Assembly: GCA_018694115.1 (NCBI GenBank) | Contig: JABHNB010000007.1 | Location: forward strand, 1,700-65,699 | Direction: 5' to 3' | DNA: 64,000 bases | Source of the DNA: an archaeon | Lineage (GTDB): Archaea > Nanobdellota > Nanobdellia > Pacearchaeales > GW2011-AR1 | In this document: positions 11,563 through 52,375 of the stretch, one piece after another | Position numbering within the stretch: position 1 is the stretch's first letter | Layout: every line of letters begins with the position of its first letter | The notes under the pieces: model-generated | What the model was told of the DNA's origin: nothing | Seen by the model: only the letters and a program-made list of their open reading frames with translations | Database searches by the model: none | Made by a program: the position numbers and the translations under genes

Positions 11563-12414
11563 ATGAAATCAATCCACATTGTTGAAAAGACATTACCCGA
11601 AGCTTGGGAGCGTGCAGTTTTAGAAACCTGGGAAACTGGGGAAAGTTTCTCAACAGAGTATGATAAACCGGGGGACCCAAAAAGCAGAGATGTGGCCGCA
11701 ATGATTCACGTAAAACAACCTTTCTCTGAACCACGAATTCACCGAGCATTTCCTGGAGAGTTAAGCGACTTAGAGAAATATCGGCAAGAGGTACTTCATG
11801 GAGTTCATAATCACTGGGTAGATCCTGCCGCAGGAAAATGGGAATATACCTACCACGAAAGACTTTTCGAATATAATGTGCCCCAAGAAGGTCTTTTCGA
11901 TCAAGTTCAAGCAGTAATTAAAAAATTAAAGGAAGTCCCATTTACAAGGAGGGCACAGGCAGTTACTTGGAAAGTCTGGGAAGATATGGGAATTGATGAT
12001 CCTGCATGCCTACAAAGGATGTGGTTTAGAATTTCAGATGACAAATTAAACATGAACGTTCATATGCGTTCTAACGACGCCTACAAGGCGGGTTTCATGA
12101 ACATGCACGCCTTTACCGAACTCCAAAAAATGGTGGCAGAAGAAATCGGAGTAGAACCAGGAGAATATATCCACATCTCCGATTCATTTCATATTTATGG
12201 ATCCTACTTCAAGGATTTCGAAGGGTTCCTAAAAGAAGTCAAAAGCAGAAGTTTAGAAGACAAAACATATCACTCAGAGGATGTTGAATATTTCTTCGAT
12301 CAAGGGAGACTTGCCCTTCTAAAAGAATCAGACCTTCCAGAAAAACACAGAATAAGAATCTATAAAGAACTTCCCCAAGATCTTCAAGATCAATATAAGG
12401 AACTCGCAAGTTAA
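11563..12414 (+). CDS. thyA: Thymidylate synthase ThyA
   Basis: RRAQAVTW, DPACLQRMWF (catalytic Cys), MRSND, SDSFHIYG. Confidence 0.92.
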   Translation: MKSIHIVEKTLPEAWERAVLETWETGESFSTEYDKPGDPKSRDVAAMIHVKQPFSEPRIHRAFPGELSDLEKYRQEVLHGVHNHWVDPAAGKWEYTYHERLFEYNVPQEGLFDQVQAVIKKLKEVPFTRRAQAVTWKVWEDMGIDDPACLQRMWFRISDDKLNMNVHMRSNDAYKAGFMNMHAFTELQKMVAEEIGVEPGEYIHISDSFHIYGSYFKDFEGFLKEVKSRSLEDKTYHSEDVEYFFDQGRLALLKESDLPEKHRIRIYKELPQDLQDQYKELAS

Positions 12415-12431
12415 ATATCTCTCATCAAAAA

Positions 12432-13466
12432 TCACTGATTACTATATTGTTGAATCTCATCAAATAAAGTTTCAAATTTAACACCCGCTTTTGCCAACAT
12501 CTCTTCAGATTCAGAACCCGAATGATAATGTCGCTCACAGACAACTCTCTTTATTCCAGCATTAATAATCATCATTGCACAAACAGTACACGGAGTCATA
12601 CGACAATAAAGTGTAGCTCCATCAATTGGAACCCCAAACTTTGCAGCCTGACAAATTGCGTTTTGTTCTGCATGAGTTGTTCGGACACAATGCTTAGACT
12701 CTCGACCGTCTTCATGAATAACACTTTTCATCTGGTGCCCTATCTCGTCACAATGGGGTAAGCCTTTTGGAGATCCAACATATCCGGTGACTAAAATTTG
12801 CTTGTCTCTAACAATCACACACCCACTCCTGCCCCTACCACAAGTCGCCCTACGAGAAACTGCCTGCGCAATTTCAACAAAATATTCATCCCAGCTAGGA
12901 CGAGAAACTTTCATTTCAATATCTGTATAAAGTTTCTCGATTTTTTCCTCGACCTCTTCAAGGGTCCCCTCATTTATCAAAACAAATTTAGCCCTAGACA
13001 TACACTTCCCAACACCCTGCCCAGAACTCTTTTCCCCGACACCCTTGTCCTTACTATCAATCTTATGAAAATCGTCAATCGTCACAGGATCACTCTCACG
13101 GTTTCGACCAACCATTCTCTTAAATCGGATTTCTTCAGAAGCATCAACAGAAACTAAGAAAAAATTCTTCATCTTCTCTAATTCCTTAACCTCTGCAGGA
13201 TTTCTAATTCCGTCAACAATTGCCTTTTTGTATTCCTGATTAATAATTTTATCAATGGCAACCTTCGCTAAAACTGCAGTTCCCCGCTCTTCTCGAAGCT
13301 GATTACCCAGATTTTGCAAATTACTTCGAGTAAGTTCAATCTTCCTCTCCTTTGCTATTTGCCTTAGTTCATCCGATAAAGAAATGTAAACAAACCCCTT
13401 CTTTTTCAAAAAACTTGCAACAACCCCCTTCCCAGAAGCTAAGCTGCCCGTCAACCCCACTATCAT
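12432..13466 (-). CDS. P-loop kinase-like (CoaE/AAA_18-type) domain fused to dCMP deaminase
   Basis: N-terminal GLTGSLASGKG Walker A; C-terminal RPSWDEYF..HAEQNAI..PCTVC deaminase motifs. Start taken at MIVG (13466). Confidence 0.88.
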   Translation of the reverse strand: MIVGLTGSLASGKGVVASFLKKKGFVYISLSDELRQIAKERKIELTRSNLQNLGNQLREERGTAVLAKVAIDKIINQEYKKAIVDGIRNPAEVKELEKMKNFFLVSVDASEEIRFKRMVGRNRESDPVTIDDFHKIDSKDKGVGEKSSGQGVGKCMSRAKFVLINEGTLEEVEEKIEKLYTDIEMKVSRPSWDEYFVEIAQAVSRRATCGRGRSGCVIVRDKQILVTGYVGSPKGLPHCDEIGHQMKSVIHEDGRESKHCVRTTHAEQNAICQAAKFGVPIDGATLYCRMTPCTVCAMMIINAGIKRVVCERHYHSGSESEEMLAKAGVKFETLFDEIQQYSNQ

Positions 13467-13517
13467 GCAACCGAAAATCAAAACCGCTTTATAAAAACTA
13501 TTACACTTCAGAATATA

Positions 13518-13955
13518 TTAGGAGATATTGCTCCCACCAGTGCTCCCAAAAGCACCATCTCCCCGAATACTATCTTCAAGTTCTTCAACTTCTTCAATCT
13601 CTGCCGTAGCGATAGGTTGAATAAGAACTTGAGCAATCTTATCGCCCGCATTAATCACAAAATCCTCTTCTCCAGTGTTCAAAACAATCACCCCATATTC
13701 TCCGCGATAAGTATGTTCAACAACGCCCCCCAAAATACAAATTCCTTTCTTTACTGCTAAACCACTCTTCCCCCGAATTGATGAAAAATAACCTTTAGGA
13801 TATTCCATTGAAATTCCGGTTGAAATCAGCTGCCTTTTTCCTGCAGGAACAATATAATTTTCCACAGAAAAGAGATCCATTCCGGCATCCCCCACGTGAG
13901 CATAAGAAGGAATAATGGCATTCTCTTTCAATTTCTTAATTTTTAATATCACCAT
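13518..13955 (-). CDS. dut: Trimeric dUTPase
   Basis: DAGMDL, RGKSGLA, YRGE, GDKIAQ, RGDGAFGSTG motifs. Confidence 0.96.
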   Translation of the reverse strand: MVILKIKKLKENAIIPSYAHVGDAGMDLFSVENYIVPAGKRQLISTGISMEYPKGYFSSIRGKSGLAVKKGICILGGVVEHTYRGEYGVIVLNTGEEDFVINAGDKIAQVLIQPIATAEIEEVEELEDSIRGDGAFGSTGGSNIS

Positions 13956-14661
13956 CTCTTAACACCATTCTCCGAGCAACATCATCAATCTGATTAATAA
14001 CAATCTTATCCCCACATTCAAGGTTTATCGAATCCCGATTATTATCAGAAACCATAATCCCCACCCCCCGAGTTATCTCGATCTCAATTTCATCCCCCGA
14101 AGATAAAAACAATGGGTCATGGGCCTTAGTGGTATTATTGAAAGCCACCCCAATACCTTCCTCAAAAGATTTTTGAACAATCGAGTAGAAATACGCTCCC
14201 CGAGAGGAACCATAAGCAGTAGAAATCACCAACCCGTCTCCGATTAAAACGTCGCCCCAATCTCCGCCATTGATACGGTACTTAAACCTAATAGCCTCCG
14301 TAGGCAATGAATTTCGAATTACGACATCGTTTAATCCCACTAAAGAACGAAACTCAAACCGCCCCCTACAAACTGCCTTTAATTTATTAATTTCTTGAAC
14401 ATCATACTTTCCTTCAAGATATAACTTCACAATTTGACATGCATCTAAGTCCTGTGCCTTATTCCCAATCTCACTGTCCCGAATTAATATCTTAGGAACT
14501 CCTGGAAAAATCCTTTCAGCAATCAAAAAAATCCCGTCGCCACCATAAGAAATAACCAGGTCTGGATCAGACTCAACATACTCCAATCCATGCTCTGCTA
14601 ACTGGGCACGCATCTTCTCAGCCTTCTCAGGATCTTTTCCCACAATATGAATTTTTTTCAT
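13936..14661 (-). CDS. NAD(+) kinase
   Basis: SYGGDG, LNDVV, GDGLVISTAYGS motifs; overlaps the dut start. Confidence 0.8.
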   Translation of the reverse strand: MKKIHIVGKDPEKAEKMRAQLAEHGLEYVESDPDLVISYGGDGIFLIAERIFPGVPKILIRDSEIGNKAQDLDACQIVKLYLEGKYDVQEINKLKAVCRGRFEFRSLVGLNDVVIRNSLPTEAIRFKYRINGGDWGDVLIGDGLVISTAYGSSRGAYFYSIVQKSFEEGIGVAFNNTTKAHDPLFLSSGDEIEIEITRGVGIMVSDNNRDSINLECGDKIVINQIDDVARRMVLRDGDIKN

Positions 14662-14695
14662 AAAAATAAAGGAGATTTAGGATTTATTAACCTTT

Positions 14696-15400
14696 TCAAA
14701 CCCTCAACCTCACGTCCTCAAAGTAATTATCCGCCACCTTCTTCAAGCCCTTCAAGTAATACTCAGAGATATCTCGTTCCCTTGTAAAACTCTCTTCAAT
14801 CATATCGCCATCACCTACCTTAAATCCCTGGAGAAAAAGCTTCTTGGGCTTTCCACCACAAACCTCCCCAATCCATTCACCCATTCTTTTGATCTCCACA
14901 CTATCATGGACTGGACCAATAATCGTTGTCCTAAATTCATAATTAGGCAATCCCGAAACAATCTTAATCGACTCTTCAATTTTCCCAATATCGACGGCAA
15001 CACCTGCAACACCAGAATAATTTTCTTTTGATGCCTTAATATCCATAGCGACATAATCCACCAATCCCAAATCGATAAGGTTCTTTAGTCGACCAGGAAA
15101 ACTACCATTAGTGTCAATCTTAATTTTATAGCCCATATCTTTGATCTTCCGAATAAAACTAATATCCAAACTCATCAAGGGTTCACCCCCAGAGATACAA
15201 ACAGCATCAAGTTTGCCTTTCCGCTTTTTCAAAAAATCCAAAACCTCTCCGACAGAAAACTCCCCCCCATCATCACGAATAACAAGACCCGGATTATAAC
15301 AAAATCCACAACGGAAGTTACATCCAAATAAAAAAACCGTACAAGCGACTTCGCCGGGATAATCAATCAAAGTCATCTTTTGTAAGCCGGAAATTTTCAT
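14696..15400 (-). CDS. nrdG: Anaerobic ribonucleotide reductase activating enzyme (radical SAM)
   Basis: MKISGLQKMTLIDYPG..GCNFRCGFCYN (CxxxCxxC), SGGEP, DTNGS. Start taken at MKISG (15400). Confidence 0.93.
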   Translation of the reverse strand: MKISGLQKMTLIDYPGEVACTVFLFGCNFRCGFCYNPGLVIRDDGGEFSVGEVLDFLKKRKGKLDAVCISGGEPLMSLDISFIRKIKDMGYKIKIDTNGSFPGRLKNLIDLGLVDYVAMDIKASKENYSGVAGVAVDIGKIEESIKIVSGLPNYEFRTTIIGPVHDSVEIKRMGEWIGEVCGGKPKKLFLQGFKVGDGDMIEESFTRERDISEYYLKGLKKVADNYFEDVRLRV

Positions 15401-15439
15401 ATTAAAAAAATAAAAATGGGGATTAAACCCCAATAAAAA

Positions 15440-15562
15440 CTAGCAATCTCCGGAAAACATTTTCCGATCCCCGAACTCTGCAAGCTTTCCTTCATTCCAT
15501 CGAGCAGTAGGCCTCAAATAGCCACAAACCCGACTCCACACCTCACATTTCGTTCTTCCCAT
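15440..15562 (-). CDS. Stand-alone 40-aa NrdD glycyl-radical peptide (not in the ORF track)
   Basis: MGRTKCEVWSRVCGYLRPTARWNEGKLAEFGDRKMFSGDC*; RVCGY is the class III RNR glycyl-radical motif; SD GGAGGTGA (plus strand 15571-15578) lies 8 nt before the ATG. Confidence 0.88.
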   Translation of the reverse strand: MGRTKCEVWSRVCGYLRPTARWNEGKLAEFGDRKMFSGDC

Positions 15563-17723
15563 TTTCAATATCACCTCCATCATTTAGTTGAGAATCTGAA
15601 ACCTTTGGGACACTTGAGGCAACTAGTAATCCTTCACCAACAACCTCTGGAACTCGACCACCCTCACCACCAAGAGAAATATCATCAGAAACAGAAACCG
15701 GAGAAGAGACGTGAGACTCAGCTTCCGCAATTTCTGCATCACACTTTGGACAGTACTCATGCTCTCCAGCCAGATATCCATGAACCGGACAAATTGAGAA
15801 AGTTGGAGTAATTGTAAAATAGGGCAAATGATAATTATTAGAGATTTTCCGAACCATTGTTTTAACGGCCTCCTTGTCTAGTTTCTCTCCAACAAAAGTA
15901 TGGAACACTGTTCCCCCCGTATATTTACATTGAAGTTCATCTTGTAAATCTAATGCCGCAAAAGCATCTGCAGTAAAATCAACAGGTAATTGCGTGGAAT
16001 TTGTATAGTAGGGTTTAGCTCCATTTTGATACGCGTCTTCATTCGCAACCAAAATTCTTCCAAATCTCTTTTTGTCCACCCTAGCGAACCGATAGGTTGT
16101 ACCTTCCCCAGGAGTAGCTTCTAAATTGTAAATATTTCCGGTTTCAGTCTGATATCCCTCAAGTTTCTCCCTCATAAAATCAAGAACCTTAACACTAAAT
16201 GCTTTTCCCTTAACTGTCGTAATATCTTCTCCGGGAATAAAATTACTGATAGACTCATTCATCCCAAGTAACCCAATCGTAGAAAAATGATTCTTCCAGT
16301 ATTTTTCAAATCTTTGGTGAACTTGTCTAAGATAAAACTTGGTGTACGGATAAAGTCCAACGTCCGTAAACTTTTCAATAGCCTTTCGCTTAATTTCTAA
16401 ACTTTCTTTTGCAAGCTCCATTAATCGGTCAAGCCTAGCAAAAAAATCATGCTCGGTTGTCGAAACAAAACCAAGTCTTGGCATATTGATTGTGACAACC
16501 CCAATTGAACCAGTCTGGGGATTAGAACCAAACAAACCCCCTCCCCGTTTCCTCAACATAGTATTATCTAAACGCAGCCTACAACACATGCTTCGAGCAT
16601 CTTCAGGCTTCATATCTGAATTAACAAAGTTCGAAAAATAAGGAATCCCATACTTGGCAGTCATTTCCCAAATTAAATCAAAGTCCGGATTATTCCAATC
16701 GAAATTCTTTGTTATATTATAGGTTGGAATTGGGAATGTAAAAACTCTTCCAGAAGCATCTCCTTCAAGCATACACTCTGCAAAAGCTTTATTTATCATC
16801 TTCATCTCTTCGGGGAAATCATTATAGGTCTCAGTCTGTGGTTGACCCCCCACAATAACATGTTCCTCCCGCATATAACTAGGAACTTCAAGATCCATGG
16901 TAACATTAGTAAATGGGGTTTGGAAACCGACTCGTGTAGGAACTGCCAAATTAAAAACAAATTCTTGCATCGTCTGTTTTACCTGTTTATAATCAAGATT
17001 ATCATACCTAATGAAAGGGGCCAGCAAGGTATCAAAATTAGAAAATGCCTGAGCACCAGCAGTCTCTCCTTGCAAAGTATAAAAGAAGTTAACAATCTGT
17101 CCTAGGGCAGTTCTAAGATGCTTAGCCGGCTTTGATTGAACCTTACCCTTAACCCCTGTAAAACCTACAGTCAACAGATCCTTCAAATCCCATCCAACAC
17201 AATAAGCTCCCAAAGTTCCAAGATCATGAACATGTAAATCTCCAGCTTCATGAACCTTACGAATAGCTTCGGGATAAATACGACGCATCCAATAATTAGT
17301 AATAATCTTCGTAGCAATATAATTGTTCAATCCCTGCAGCGAAAAACCCATATTCGAATTCTCTTTAACCATCCAATCATTAAGTCCGACATAATCTTCA
17401 ACAGCCTCAATAGTATCAAAAAGTCCCTTAACGCTTCTTAACTCATCATGAGTCTTACGGTACAGAATATATGCCTTAGCAACCTTTGCATGTCCTTCTT
17501 CAATTAAAATCTTCTCAACTAAATCCTGTACTTCTTCAACATCCGGAATCCCATGCTCCCCATGAATCTTATTCAAGGTCTCTAAAACAGAATTAGCCAA
17601 TGCCTCAGTTCTCTCACGATCTCTCCCACCTACGGCCCTCGCCGCATTCCAGATCGCATCAGCAATCTTATCTCTCTGGAAAAGCACAACGCTTCCATCT
17701 CTTTTTCTAACTTTTGTCACCAT
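15543..17723 (-). CDS. nrdD: Class III anaerobic ribonucleotide reductase, large polypeptide (ATP cone; no glycyl-radical loop)
   Basis: N-terminal ATP cone VRKRDGSV, GAYCVGW, RSMCCRLR finger loop, QCKYTGGTV, Zn site ICPVHGY..YCPKC; ends in an acidic low-complexity tail with no RxxGY. Confidence 0.95.
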   Translation of the reverse strand: MVTKVRKRDGSVVLFQRDKIADAIWNAARAVGGRDRERTEALANSVLETLNKIHGEHGIPDVEEVQDLVEKILIEEGHAKVAKAYILYRKTHDELRSVKGLFDTIEAVEDYVGLNDWMVKENSNMGFSLQGLNNYIATKIITNYWMRRIYPEAIRKVHEAGDLHVHDLGTLGAYCVGWDLKDLLTVGFTGVKGKVQSKPAKHLRTALGQIVNFFYTLQGETAGAQAFSNFDTLLAPFIRYDNLDYKQVKQTMQEFVFNLAVPTRVGFQTPFTNVTMDLEVPSYMREEHVIVGGQPQTETYNDFPEEMKMINKAFAECMLEGDASGRVFTFPIPTYNITKNFDWNNPDFDLIWEMTAKYGIPYFSNFVNSDMKPEDARSMCCRLRLDNTMLRKRGGGLFGSNPQTGSIGVVTINMPRLGFVSTTEHDFFARLDRLMELAKESLEIKRKAIEKFTDVGLYPYTKFYLRQVHQRFEKYWKNHFSTIGLLGMNESISNFIPGEDITTVKGKAFSVKVLDFMREKLEGYQTETGNIYNLEATPGEGTTYRFARVDKKRFGRILVANEDAYQNGAKPYYTNSTQLPVDFTADAFAALDLQDELQCKYTGGTVFHTFVGEKLDKEAVKTMVRKISNNYHLPYFTITPTFSICPVHGYLAGEHEYCPKCDAEIAEAESHVSSPVSVSDDISLGGEGGRVPEVVGEGLLVASSVPKVSDSQLNDGGDIENGKNEM

Positions 17724-17740
17724 CTTTTTATTTTAATTTT

Positions 17741-18181
17741 TTATTTTAATTTTTTAAGTTCATCTCTGAACTCGTCAATATCCGCAAAGTCTCTGTAAAC
17801 TGCCGCAAATCGAATATACGCCACCTTGTCAACTTTTTTCAGCTTATCCATGACAATCTGACCAACCTTTGAACTTGGAATATCCTTATCTTTTGCAACC
17901 CGATAGACCCTTGCCGCAATGTCATCAACAATTTGATCGATCTGTTCACTTGTAAACGGCCTCTTTTCAAGATTTTTTGAAACCCCGATATATAACTTCT
18001 CACGATTAAACTTTTCCCGCCTACCATCTTTTTTAGTAAGATTCAAGTCAAGCTCAACTCGCTCATAAGTTGTAAACCGCTTACCACATTTCAAACACTC
18101 ACGCCTTCGCCGAGTAACTGCCTGACTATCTCTCTTATCTGTAACTTTAGTCTCCGCAGCATTGCAATATGGGCATAACAT
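17741..18181 (-). CDS. nrdR: Transcriptional repressor NrdR
   Basis: MLCPYC..RRRRECLKCGKRFTTYE Zn ribbon, ATP cone KKDGRREKFNREKL, DKVAYIRFAAVYRDF. Start at 18181. Confidence 0.95.
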   Translation of the reverse strand: MLCPYCNAAETKVTDKRDSQAVTRRRRECLKCGKRFTTYERVELDLNLTKKDGRREKFNREKLYIGVSKNLEKRPFTSEQIDQIVDDIAARVYRVAKDKDIPSSKVGQIVMDKLKKVDKVAYIRFAAVYRDFADIDEFRDELKKLK

Positions 18182-18203
18182 CTTTTTTGTAATTTTACAA
18201 TGA

Positions 18204-18251
18204 ATACAAGATATTGTATCTCGCACCCCTTTTTTCCACAATTGCTTGTGG
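18204..18251 (-). promoter_or_regulatory. Tandem NrdR boxes
   Basis: ATACAAGATATTGTAT (18204-18219; 13/16 match to acaCwAtATaTwGtgt) and CCACAATTGCTTGTGG (18236-18251; 11/16), 32 bp start to start. Confidence 0.8.
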
Positions 18252-18277
18252 TTGTAAGCTAACATAGAACTGTCGAC

Positions 18278-18285
18278 TATATAAA
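18278..18285 (-). promoter_or_regulatory. Archaeal TATA box of the nrdR-nrdD-peptide-nrdG operon
   Basis: TTTATATA on the minus strand, about 27 bp upstream of the distal NrdR box. Confidence 0.6.
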
Positions 18286-18363
18286 GATTATTATGATAAA
18301 AGCTATAGATCCGTTAACGATTGTTAACAAAGTAAACCGACCGTTACTTTTTCATAATGATTA

Positions 18364-19017
18364 CTAAGCTTTAAGAACCGTATCAATTCTCTTTTTTGAA
18401 ATTTGATAAACCTCGTCGTGAATTTCTTCAACACTTTTAGAGCCATCAACTAGCACACAAACATCAGAATCCCTTTTAGCAATTTGTTTATATCCTTCTC
18501 TCACTCTTTTGTGATAATCTATAGCTCGTGCTTCAATTTTATCTTGAATTTCAGAAGCTCCCCTGGCCCGCCTCACTCCTTCCTCAGAGTCAATATCAAA
18601 AATTATTGCCAAATCAAGTTTCGCCCCAGAAGCAGCTAACAGATTGATATAATTAATATCCCTCCCATTCACATTCCCTCCCGCGCCCTGATATGCCTCA
18701 GTTGAATAAAAATTTCGATCAGATAAAACTAGCTTTCCCTCGCTTAGGGCAGGAGCAACAACGGTTTGGATCGAATACCTTCGAGAAGCCGAAAATAGAA
18801 ATAATTCCGTAACCGCATCCAGGTCTTCATGGGCACTGTCTAATAAAAGTTCCCTAATCTTATTCCCAAATAAGGTACCTCCAGGCTCACGGATTCTCAA
18901 AACATCAAACTCCTTTCTAAGTGCCTCCTCCAATAAATTACATTGGGTGGATTTTCCACAGCCATCAGGACCCTCCATCACCAAATAAAAACCTCCAGGA
19001 ATTATTGTGTTCACCAT
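18364..19017 (-). CDS. tmk: Thymidylate kinase
   Basis: MEGPDGCGKSTQ, REPGGT, ELFLFSASR, LSDRNFYST. Confidence 0.95.
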   Translation of the reverse strand: MVNTIIPGGFYLVMEGPDGCGKSTQCNLLEEALRKEFDVLRIREPGGTLFGNKIRELLLDSAHEDLDAVTELFLFSASRRYSIQTVVAPALSEGKLVLSDRNFYSTEAYQGAGGNVNGRDINYINLLAASGAKLDLAIIFDIDSEEGVRRARGASEIQDKIEARAIDYHKRVREGYKQIAKRDSDVCVLVDGSKSVEEIHDEVYQISKKRIDTVLKA

Positions 19018-50311: not shown

Positions 50312-52375
50312 CTAAGATTTACGGAATTTATATCTCACAATATTAAATCCCTTTACAATAATAAATGCAATAGCAATCAGAGAAACTGCAAGAAGGCCCA
50401 GAATCGCAAACATGGAAGTCCTTAGCGGTTGTTCTTCTGCACAAGCATAAGGGCAAGGTCCGCCACAATCTATACCTGATTCTCCCTGATTCTTTTTTCC
50501 ATCTGAACAAGTTGCACAAGGTTCACAAGGTCCGCCACAATCTACCAATAGCTCACAACCCTTCCCATGACAGTTTGTTATACCATCTTCACAACTTGGA
50601 TCTTCAGTAAAATAACAAACCTGCATTTCAGAAGGCTTAGTAACCCTTGGAACAGTATTGTTATTACAAAGATTCAAATCCTTACAAGAAGTAAGTTGAA
50701 ATCCGCAAAATCTTTCATCATATTTATTCTGAGAGCATATTTCTTGAACCGAAAAGTGATCTTCTAGAGATAAACTTCTAGCGTCAAAAGATCTCTTAGC
50801 ATTCTGACAAACACCCCAACCTTCACAAACCCATTCTTCAGAACAGTACGCACCAATAGTGCCTCCACCGCCGCCTCCACCGCCGCCTCCACCGCCGCCT
50901 CCACCGCCAACCGGACAGGCCACAGAACTATAATCAATAATCCAACTATTTGATGCGTTCAATAGACCATCACTAACCACCACAGTTACGTTAACCTCTC
51001 CCGAGCGTCCACAACCAAGAGAATAAGCATAATCATCTGAAGACAACAACTCATTATGTTCTTTTAAAACACCATCAACATACCAGTCAATATCTGGAAT
51101 GTTTGCATCAGGGTCTCTAACACTTACACTAAATGTAGTTGAAGTAGTTCCCCCAATACTAAAATTAGATTCCGCAGGAAGATAACTCGAGATTTCAGGA
51201 GCCCGATTATCATCCGTAACTGTCAATGTAAAATCATCACAAATACTCTTTATAGAACCATCCTCCGCAACTCCACATGCATCACTAATATTTACATGAG
51301 GATTAGCAATTCCAGTATCATTCGCACAAACAGTTATGCTAAAGGTCCGATTAACATGATTTATAGTGGGAGTAAAATTAACGATCCCGTAGGTCTCATT
51401 GATACTAAATAATTCTTCACCAACAAAAGAAATATTAAAGGTAAAATTCCCCGAACTTGAAGTCCCATCCTCAAGATCAGATATAAGAAATTGATAATTA
51501 AACTCGGAATCATCCCCTTCAAGATATAGCGTTCTAGAACCAAGCCCCGAACCAACCCAATTAGGAGCATTATTCATTTCGATAACAGTAATATTAATAT
51601 CTGCAGTATCTACACAACAACTAAAATTAAAATCATCATCCGCGGTAACTCTAGTTAAATAAGACTTGAATCCTGCATCAACTCCTCCCGCAGAATCCTT
51701 GCTCAAAGTTGCGGAAATAATCCTTGAAGTAAAATTTGTATATTCAACAGTATTAATTGGAGAAAGGATATAAAATAAGTCATGTGAATCGTTTAACTGA
51801 ATTCCCAAGGTATCCTCATCAGCATCATAAGTATCAAATTCATATCCCGCATTAGGTGCCCCAATTTTTTGGTTCTCACAAACAAAAATCTCTTCATCAA
51901 TAGTTCCAATAAGAGGTGCAGAATTTGGAACCTCGACATAAAAGACCACACTCTCATTAGTCCATTCTCCACCAGTCTGCTTAGCAGAAACCGTTAACAA
52001 ATTAGACCACCGAGTAGCATTAATCGTAGTATCCGGACTAAATGAGACAGTATCATTAAGTGAAACATTATGTCTAAGATCAAAAAGAGAATATGCCCAG
52101 TCATCGGGATTAAAGTTAGAAGAAGCATTAAGAATAATTTCATAAGTGGCTCCAATCGCAAAATTATAAGTATCATTAATTGGGCTAGTTATATTCAAAT
52201 CCCTAGTCCCTCCAGAAACAAAAAGACTAATTGCACCATTAAGACTTTGTCCAGTAATCATCTGGCCGAGATTTGGTAGTGGATATTCGAAGTTAGAACT
52301 AATCATATAATTCCCCACAATAATTGCTGCAAAAACCAATAGCAAAGCAAATACTACAACCCCTTTCTTCTTCAT
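50312..52375 (-). CDS. Secreted surface protein: cadherin-like repeats, poly-Gly hinge, Cys-rich region, C-terminal TM
   Basis: NSAP/NNAP/NRAP linkers, G16, CSEEWVCEGWGVC, CSDGKKNQGESGIDCGGPC. Start MKKKG at 52375. Confidence 0.78.
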   Translation of the reverse strand: MKKKGVVVFALLLVFAAIIVGNYMISSNFEYPLPNLGQMITGQSLNGAISLFVSGGTRDLNITSPINDTYNFAIGATYEIILNASSNFNPDDWAYSLFDLRHNVSLNDTVSFSPDTTINATRWSNLLTVSAKQTGGEWTNESVVFYVEVPNSAPLIGTIDEEIFVCENQKIGAPNAGYEFDTYDADEDTLGIQLNDSHDLFYILSPINTVEYTNFTSRIISATLSKDSAGGVDAGFKSYLTRVTADDDFNFSCCVDTADINITVIEMNNAPNWVGSGLGSRTLYLEGDDSEFNYQFLISDLEDGTSSSGNFTFNISFVGEELFSINETYGIVNFTPTINHVNRTFSITVCANDTGIANPHVNISDACGVAEDGSIKSICDDFTLTVTDDNRAPEISSYLPAESNFSIGGTTSTTFSVSVRDPDANIPDIDWYVDGVLKEHNELLSSDDYAYSLGCGRSGEVNVTVVVSDGLLNASNSWIIDYSSVACPVGGGGGGGGGGGGGGGGTIGAYCSEEWVCEGWGVCQNAKRSFDARSLSLEDHFSVQEICSQNKYDERFCGFQLTSCKDLNLCNNNTVPRVTKPSEMQVCYFTEDPSCEDGITNCHGKGCELLVDCGGPCEPCATCSDGKKNQGESGIDCGGPCPYACAEEQPLRTSMFAILGLLAVSLIAIAFIIVKGFNIVRYKFRKS
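50861..50908. repeat. Perfect 12-bp tandem repeat x4 encoding Gly16
   Basis: (gcctccaccgcc)4. Confidence 0.95.

Follow-up and report, generated by a model that had tools for sequence, protein, structure and literature searches.

Background

The locus described here raises a simple question: do two short palindromes lying ahead of an archaeal nrdR gene form an operator for NrdR itself, and how would such a repressor act on a promoter of the archaeal type? NrdR has been studied in bacteria only, and some recent papers state that it is absent from archaea or rare there. In bacteria, both the grammar of its operators (16-bp boxes with six key positions, a linker of 15-16 bp, two boxes needed) and its ATP/dATP switch are established (PMC13584703, PMC9110341, PMC12051234, PMC12176259). 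An original prediction, made from the letters of the DNA, held that NrdR represses an nrdR-nrdD-peptide-nrdG operon of this archaeon by occluding the start region of a TATA promoter, so that a bacterial nucleotide sensor is coupled to TBP/TFB machinery. We followed up this prediction in the 64,000-nucleotide stretch that contains the locus (the window), in the rest of the genome and in related genomes.

Results

Architecture of the putative operator

The features found between tmk and nrdR are the following.

18286..18292, minus strand: BRE-like stretch aATAATC, abutting the TATA box on its upstream side
18278..18285, minus strand: TATA box TTTATATA (the plus strand reads tatataaa)
18255, minus strand: predicted start of transcription, on the A of a conserved T-R step, 23rd nt past the TATA box
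18236..18251: putative distal NrdR box, CCACAAGCAATTGTGG in gene direction, CCACAATTGCTTGTGG on the plus strand; predicted about +5 to +20; ACAA..TTGT core invariant in 30 orthologues
18220..18235: linker aaaaaaggggtgcgag, 16 bp, purine-rich, SD-like, semi-conserved within the genus
18204..18219: putative proximal NrdR box, ATACAATATCTTGTAT in gene direction, ATACAAGATATTGTAT on the plus strand; predicted about +37 to +52; 6/6 conserved positions

Read 5' to 3' on the minus strand, the tmk stop (18364) is followed by cataATAATC-TTTATATA, the distal box, the linker, the proximal box and the nrdR ATG (18181..18179). The distal box lies 26 nt from the end of the TATA box and the proximal box 22 nt from the ATG; the boxes start 32 bp apart, which leaves a linker of 16 bp. 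The two imperfect 16-bp palindromes had thus been read correctly in the original prediction, in their strings and coordinates as well as in their position between the TATA element and the nrdR ATG.

Six conserved positions have been defined for NrdR boxes, namely C4, A6, A8, T9, T11 and G13 (PMC13584703). All of them are present in the proximal box (6/6). The distal box has C4, A6, T11 and G13 (4/6), its centre being CA instead of the consensus AT, and functional NrdR boxes of bacteria are known to tolerate other central dinucleotides (PMC13584703). In consensus and tandem spacing, the pair fits the published operator grammar that had been invoked for it; linkers longer by one helical turn also belong to this operator type. 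The linker has its own genus form, aAAAGgGGTGCGAG, which is SD-like; bacterial linkers are reported to be unconserved. AAGAGG-type motifs turn up again in operator linkers of other families.

Occurrence of box pairs in the genome

Single boxes are uninformative in this AT-rich genome (38% G+C), since a genome search with the single-box consensus, allowing up to 3 mismatches, returned 140 matches against 151 for a reversed-pattern control, that is, no excess. A tandem of the core ACWA-N4-TWGT occurs once in 898,664 bp when all spacings from 10 to 39 are taken together, the expectation being about 0.015 per spacing. This sole tandem has the canonical 16-bp linker and is situated directly before the nrdR-nrdD operon. 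A graded pair score of at least 27 is reached about 9 times per 0.9 Mb genome, or about 0.003 times per 300 nt.

A looser core of four positions (C4, A6, T11 and G13) had given 40 pair matches, mostly due to chance, and was replaced by the ACWA-N4-TWGT core and the graded score. One other pair scores high in this genome (C2:52825, window position 51126, 14-bp linker); it is located inside a 706-aa ORF and was judged to be a chance match.

Conservation and co-occurrence with nrdR

In an alignment of 30 orthologous upstream regions from the genus, the BRE/TATA element AATCTTTAAATAG, both ACAA..TTGT cores and the spacing are invariant, and AATAATC-TTTAWATA is almost so. In the same alignment the flanks vary, with anything from 4 to 99 nt separating the proximal box from the ATG, and it is therefore the TATA box together with the operator that forms the conserved unit. 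A wider set comprised 99 distinct archaeal nrdR upstream regions from Nanoarchaeota in the wide sense and Aenigmatarchaeota. A pair scoring at least 27 is present in 82 of them, with a linker of 15-16 bp in 79 of the 82 operators. The logo of the proximal box (n = 82) retains C4 in 82, A6 in 82, A8 in 78, T9 in 79, T11 in 81 and G13 in 82 cases. The distal box (82 operators) is looser in its centre than the proximal one, and the archaeal logos match the published NrdR-box consensus.

The boxes are tied to the NrdR protein, because no pair scoring 24 or more was found in the RNR upstream regions of seven related genomes without NrdR, and in one further genome of the genus, a second RNR is preceded by the same AATCTTTATATA element and, behind it, a pair that scores 31. 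As judged from these comparisons, the boxes and their 16-bp spacing are under strong purifying selection and are found only where nrdR occurs. The conservation in orthologous promoters on which the original prediction depended is thus seen in 30/30 regions within the genus and in 82/99 at the wider scale.

The promoter and its predicted start site

The host is a Pacearchaeota/Woesearchaeota-type archaeon. It has an archaeal 16S rRNA and encodes TBP and TFB, with Rpb1/Rpb2-type RNAP subunits on the same contig, so that the machinery assumed in the original prediction is present. The tRNA genes of the genome carry BRE/TATA elements of the type aAtAAnCTTTAAATA, which begin 30-33 nt before the mature 5' end. 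The nrdR promoter, AATAATC-TTTATATA, belongs to the same BRE/TATA type, in agreement with the archaeal TATA promoter proposed for it. In the canonical archaeal arrangement, the start site is found about 23 nt after the TATA box. Placed by its TATA distance alone, as calibrated on the tRNA genes of the genome, transcription is predicted to start near A 18255, within a conserved TTAC/TTGC motif, and to produce a leader of 74 nt. This predicted start is upstream of both boxes, not downstream of them.

The position of the operator relative to the TATA box falls into classes. Of the 82 operators, 51 have a gap of 24-28 nt between TATA box and distal box; in smaller classes it measures 4-10 nt (14 operators) or 14-17 nt (7 operators), and in at least 2 the TATA box is inside the linker. 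When 42 operators outside the near relatives were considered, 18 TATA matches fell into the 24-28 nt class, against 0-3 per 5-nt bin at control offsets. The 24-28 nt class occurs in several separate NrdR clades.

Between tmk and nrdD, the TATA box at 18278..18285 is the only conserved TATA-like element. A candidate internal promoter of nrdD, CTTAAAAA at 17758-17751, was rejected, since it has no conserved counterpart in relatives, whose nrdR and nrdD genes adjoin or overlap.

Another repeat, GTTAAC-N4-GTTAAC, is present at 18313-18328, about 28 nt upstream of the BRE/TATA element, and is conserved in about 12 of the 30 genus orthologues. The genome has 3 such sites (about 0.07 expected), one of them immediately adjoining the start of an HTH-like ORF of 121 aa on contig C8, for which Pfam gave no match. 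The repeat may be the site of a second regulator.

The RNR operon and its neighbourhood

The genes downstream of the operator are these.

17741..18181, minus strand: nrdR, 147 codons including the stop; Zn ribbon (two CxxC) and ATP-cone; begins MLCPYCNA
15543..17723, minus strand: nrdD body, 726 aa; ATP-cone and class III RNR; 17 nt past nrdR
15440..15583, minus strand: NrdD glycyl-radical tail as a separate ORF; start probably ATG 15562 behind SD GGAGGTGAT
14696..15433, minus strand: nrdG activase, TIGR02495
13518..14661, minus strand: NAD-kinase-like gene and dut, probable further members of the transcript

Each gene of the order nrdR-nrdD-peptide-nrdG, as originally proposed, could be identified on the minus strand; the full series beyond nrdR is nrdD, the glycyl-radical ORF, nrdG, the NAD-kinase-like gene, dut and a kinase-dCMP deaminase fusion. 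The operon junctions are tight or overlapping, and the nrdR-nrdD junction is tight across the genus. The NAD-kinase-like gene and dut are probably co-transcribed with the rest, since the 34-nt gap after nrdG is devoid of any TATA-like element. No class I or class II RNR was found in the genome (0.9 Mb, 83% complete), and NrdD is the only RNR detected; with a genome only 83% complete, the terms "sole RNR" and "sole operator" are provisional.

In all archaeal loci compared, nrdR heads the gene order, with nrdD or class II nrdJ behind it. In some relatives (L008, L009, L023, L026; L041, L043, L052), nrdR is separated from the RNR gene by a further small gene, for a MazG-type NTP pyrophosphohydrolase where nrdD follows, or for a thioredoxin where nrdJ follows. 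The window operon is part of a larger dNTP-supply cluster at 11563-19017, with thyA on the plus strand and the kinase-dCMP deaminase gene, dut, the NAD-kinase-like gene, nrdG, the radical peptide, nrdD, nrdR and tmk on the minus strand. Intergenic DNA of this cluster has TATA-like elements on the minus strand at just three places, namely before tmk, nrdR and the deaminase gene.

The NrdD protein is split. Its 726-aa body ends with EYCPKCD and an acidic low-complexity tail, and the glycyl-radical end (MGRTKCEVWSRVCGYLRP...) is encoded on its own by an ORF of about 40 aa that follows a perfect SD; in the window, the two ORFs overlap in the +1 frame. The same split recurs in 12 species of the genus (L134, L136-L141, L145-L147, L036, L037), in the form of an overlap, a same-frame stop or a 7-nt gap; other families of the order have NrdD in one piece. 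According to a 2026 review, spare-part glycyl-radical proteins are known for formate lyases only (PMC13450708). In the nrdD genes of two genus relatives (L134, L135), residues 175 and 268/269 mark the sites of large in-frame insertions of about 950 nt, and nrdJ (L041, L052) has an insertion after the NPC active-site motif; these insertions are probably inteins.

The NrdR protein, its spread and its origin

The product of the first gene matches the equivalog model TIGR00244 over model positions 1-147 with 164.2 bits (cut-off 124.65). Its Zn ribbon is formed by C3-x2-C6 and C29-x2-C32 (PF22811, 58.9 bits, cut-off 27.2) and is followed by a single ATP-cone at residues 49-134 (PF03477, 65.4 bits). 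The protein aligns over its full length to the structures of E. coli NrdR (9FXK/9FZF/9GEX; E about 1e-37, about 50% identity) and end to end with S. coelicolor NrdR (7P37; E 2e-22). By these sequence features the ORF is a bona fide NrdR, and the naming of the gene in the original prediction stands.

Within the genus, 33 of 36 genomes encode NrdR, and it is also present in many families of the order. It passes the family cut-off in 222/301 genomes of the archaeal phylum (about 74%) and was found in 0 of the 4 model archaea that served as controls. MAGs with the labels Candidatus Pacearchaeota, Woesearchaeota or Nanoarchaeota are the source of the closest NrdR loci. Published statements on its distribution differ: a 2025 preprint calls NrdR absent from archaea (10.1101/2025.03.28.645925), whereas it has been reported from 22% of archaeal genomes (PMC13584703), with the same authors stating that it controls "a few archaeal RNRs". 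The word "bacterial", used for NrdR in the original prediction, is therefore justified historically, but in the sense of a gene foreign to this host it does not hold, given its frequency in the phylum and in archaeal genomes at large. Since NrdR is widespread in the phylum and already published in archaea, its presence on an archaeal promoter is less surprising than it may seem.

A tree of 103 NrdR sequences has archaeal and bacterial rows interleaved and weak deep branches, and neither a donor nor a direction of transfer emerges from it. Several of the "bacterial" rows nested among archaeal NrdRs may stem from mis-binned contigs. NrdR genes from MAGs with bacterial labels (Psychracetigena, Saccharibacteria, Woykebacteria, Paceibacterota; L067, L111, L114, L118, L125) nest in archaeal clades, and in some of these loci TATA-like elements stand at the distances seen in archaea; such loci would result either from mis-binning or from CPR-DPANN exchange. 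Four loci from Woesearchaeota/Aenigmatarchaeota MAGs (L091, L101, L105, L099) encode an in-frame fusion between a complete NrdR and a class III RNR. The fusion ORFs are at least 647 aa long, cut by the locus end, and have NrdR box pairs upstream.

Discussion

Proposed mode of action

The comparisons described above make it very probable that the two palindromes are a genuine NrdR operator, set on a standard archaeal promoter and repressing the RNR operon. Transcription would begin at about 18255, and the boxes would occupy approximately +5 to +20 and +37 to +52 of the 74-nt leader. Upon accumulation of dATP, an NrdR tetramer loaded with ATP and dATP would bind both boxes, as it does in S. coelicolor and E. 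coli. TBP and TFB would still be able to occupy the BRE/TATA element, and RNAP recruitment or promoter clearance would be blocked, because the distal box is within the region that the polymerase covers. With ATP alone bound, NrdR would come off the DNA and the operon would be expressed. As nrdR is the first gene of the operon, the circuit would be autoregulated, and it would govern the only RNR found in the genome.

Repressors acting in this manner are familiar in archaea. MDR1 of Archaeoglobus, Phr and LrpA of Pyrococcus and NrpR of Methanococcus bind just past the TATA box and block the recruitment of RNAP; their operators overlap or directly follow the start site and leave the BRE/TATA element free, which is the logic we propose for the window operator. 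They belong to unrelated families (DtxR, ArsR/HTH, Lrp) and respond to different ligands, and to our knowledge none of the four senses ATP/dATP through an ATP-cone.

Alternative explanations

Because the operator is downstream of the predicted start and not over the TATA box, an initiation block and an elongation roadblock would look alike. NrdR bound at +5 to +52 could act mainly as an obstacle to elongating RNAP, including polymerases that read through from tmk, and leave recruitment unaffected. Such a role would suit the location of both boxes downstream of the predicted start, the lack of any terminator-like site or long T-run seen after tmk and the fact that operators of the genus never overlap the TATA box. 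We nevertheless consider it unlikely. Archaeal pre-initiation complex footprints reach about +18, and the distal box, beginning 1-5 nt past the predicted start, is inside this footprint; moreover, the operators of other families, situated 4-10 nt past the TATA box or flanking it, point to interference with initiation. As all gap classes place NrdR on or beside the region of the pre-initiation complex, hindered recruitment or clearance of RNAP is the most likely mode of repression in the genus. The quantised position of the operator relative to the TATA box would also allow a more elaborate version, in which NrdR docks in a fixed rotational and translational register with respect to TBP, TFB and RNAP, for example by trapping a poised complex, and in which the boxes and the SD-like linker might add an RNA layer; we regard this as a rather speculative proposal with a small chance of being correct.

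It is very unlikely that the palindromes serve as RNA hairpins of the 74-nt leader, affecting stability or translation, instead of a DNA operator, even though several observations would agree with this. The predicted leader has a more stable fold than its shuffles (-21 kcal/mol, z = -3.2), pairing is maintained in 80% of the cells of the genus alignment, a level reached by 1/500 shuffles, and pairing is also possible between the 3' half of the linker and the right half of the proximal box. The pairing-preserving variation, however, consists of transitions opposite invariant box bases, by which pairing is kept automatically. Mid-stem T-T/A-A mismatches occur in 16-25% of operators, exactly at the consensus W positions 5/12, and the "loop" bases A8 and T9, for which a hairpin would have no need, are conserved in 78-79 of the 82 proximal boxes. 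Wobble pairs of the sense strand are no commoner than their antisense counterparts in the proximal box (T-G 12 versus C-A 10), and in several families the boxes would not be transcribed, as they precede the predicted start or lie on either side of the TATA box. The mismatches at W, the conserved A8 and T9, the equal wobble and the untranscribed boxes elsewhere make a DNA operator the preferred reading. Least probable of all is that the palindromes bind another regulator, or are a product of chance or a relic, with NrdR being irrelevant. The conserved GTTAAC-N4-GTTAAC repeat (18313-18328) does indicate that further factors may act on this promoter; the boxes, on the other hand, match NrdR at 6/6 (proximal) and 4/6 (distal) positions with the canonical 16-bp linker, the pair is unique in the genome and tied to the presence of nrdR across genomes, and it is invariant across 30 species while the flanking DNA varies.

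Comparison with known NrdR systems

One of the closest known counterparts of the DNA operator favoured here is that of the nrdRJ operon of S. coelicolor (7P37/7P3F/7P3Q; PMC9110341). In both cases an RNR operon begins with nrdR, which is autoregulated (in the archaeon, by inference), two 16-bp partial palindromes with a 15-16 bp linker are placed over the start region, and the repressor consists of a Zn ribbon and an ATP-cone, with homology over the full length. S. coelicolor differs in using a sigma-70 promoter with -35/-10 elements, where the archaeon has BRE/TATA with TBP/TFB and an archaeal RNAP. Its target is a class II enzyme, in contrast to the class III nrdD/nrdG with a split NrdD, and the boxes of the window are wholly downstream of the predicted start site. 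The nrdDG operator of E. coli (9FXK, 9FZF, 9GEX; PMC12176259) likewise has tandem NrdR boxes before a class III RNR operon, and E. coli NrdR is the closest solved homologue of the window protein. There, nrdR is encoded elsewhere and controls three RNR operons by means of bacterial transcription machinery, whereas one operator and one RNR are present here, served by the archaeal machinery.

In haloarchaea, nrdR-nrdA-nrdB and nrdR-nrdB-nrdA clusters were described in 2010 (PMC3019208), so that an archaeal nrdR adjoining RNR genes has a precedent. Those clusters contain class I RNRs recently transferred from bacteria and are partly located on plasmids (PMC3019208), in contrast to the NrdR of the window, which is common to about three quarters of a whole phylum and precedes nrdD or nrdJ. 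Among the top matches listed, our literature search found no paper on the position of an NrdR operator at an archaeal TATA promoter, nor one dealing with NrdR and DPANN.

Conclusions

The window operator is one more example of a known NrdR system. It overturns nothing, as bacterial-type repressors on archaeal promoters are the rule and archaeal NrdR has already been published. About three quarters of the genomes of this DPANN phylum carry NrdR before RNR genes, and the window presents a clean and minimal case: a well-defined BRE/TATA promoter combined with a single repressor, a single operator and a single RNR operon. Such a locus could be used to ask how a nucleotide sensor of the ATP-cone type acts against eukaryote-like transcription machinery.
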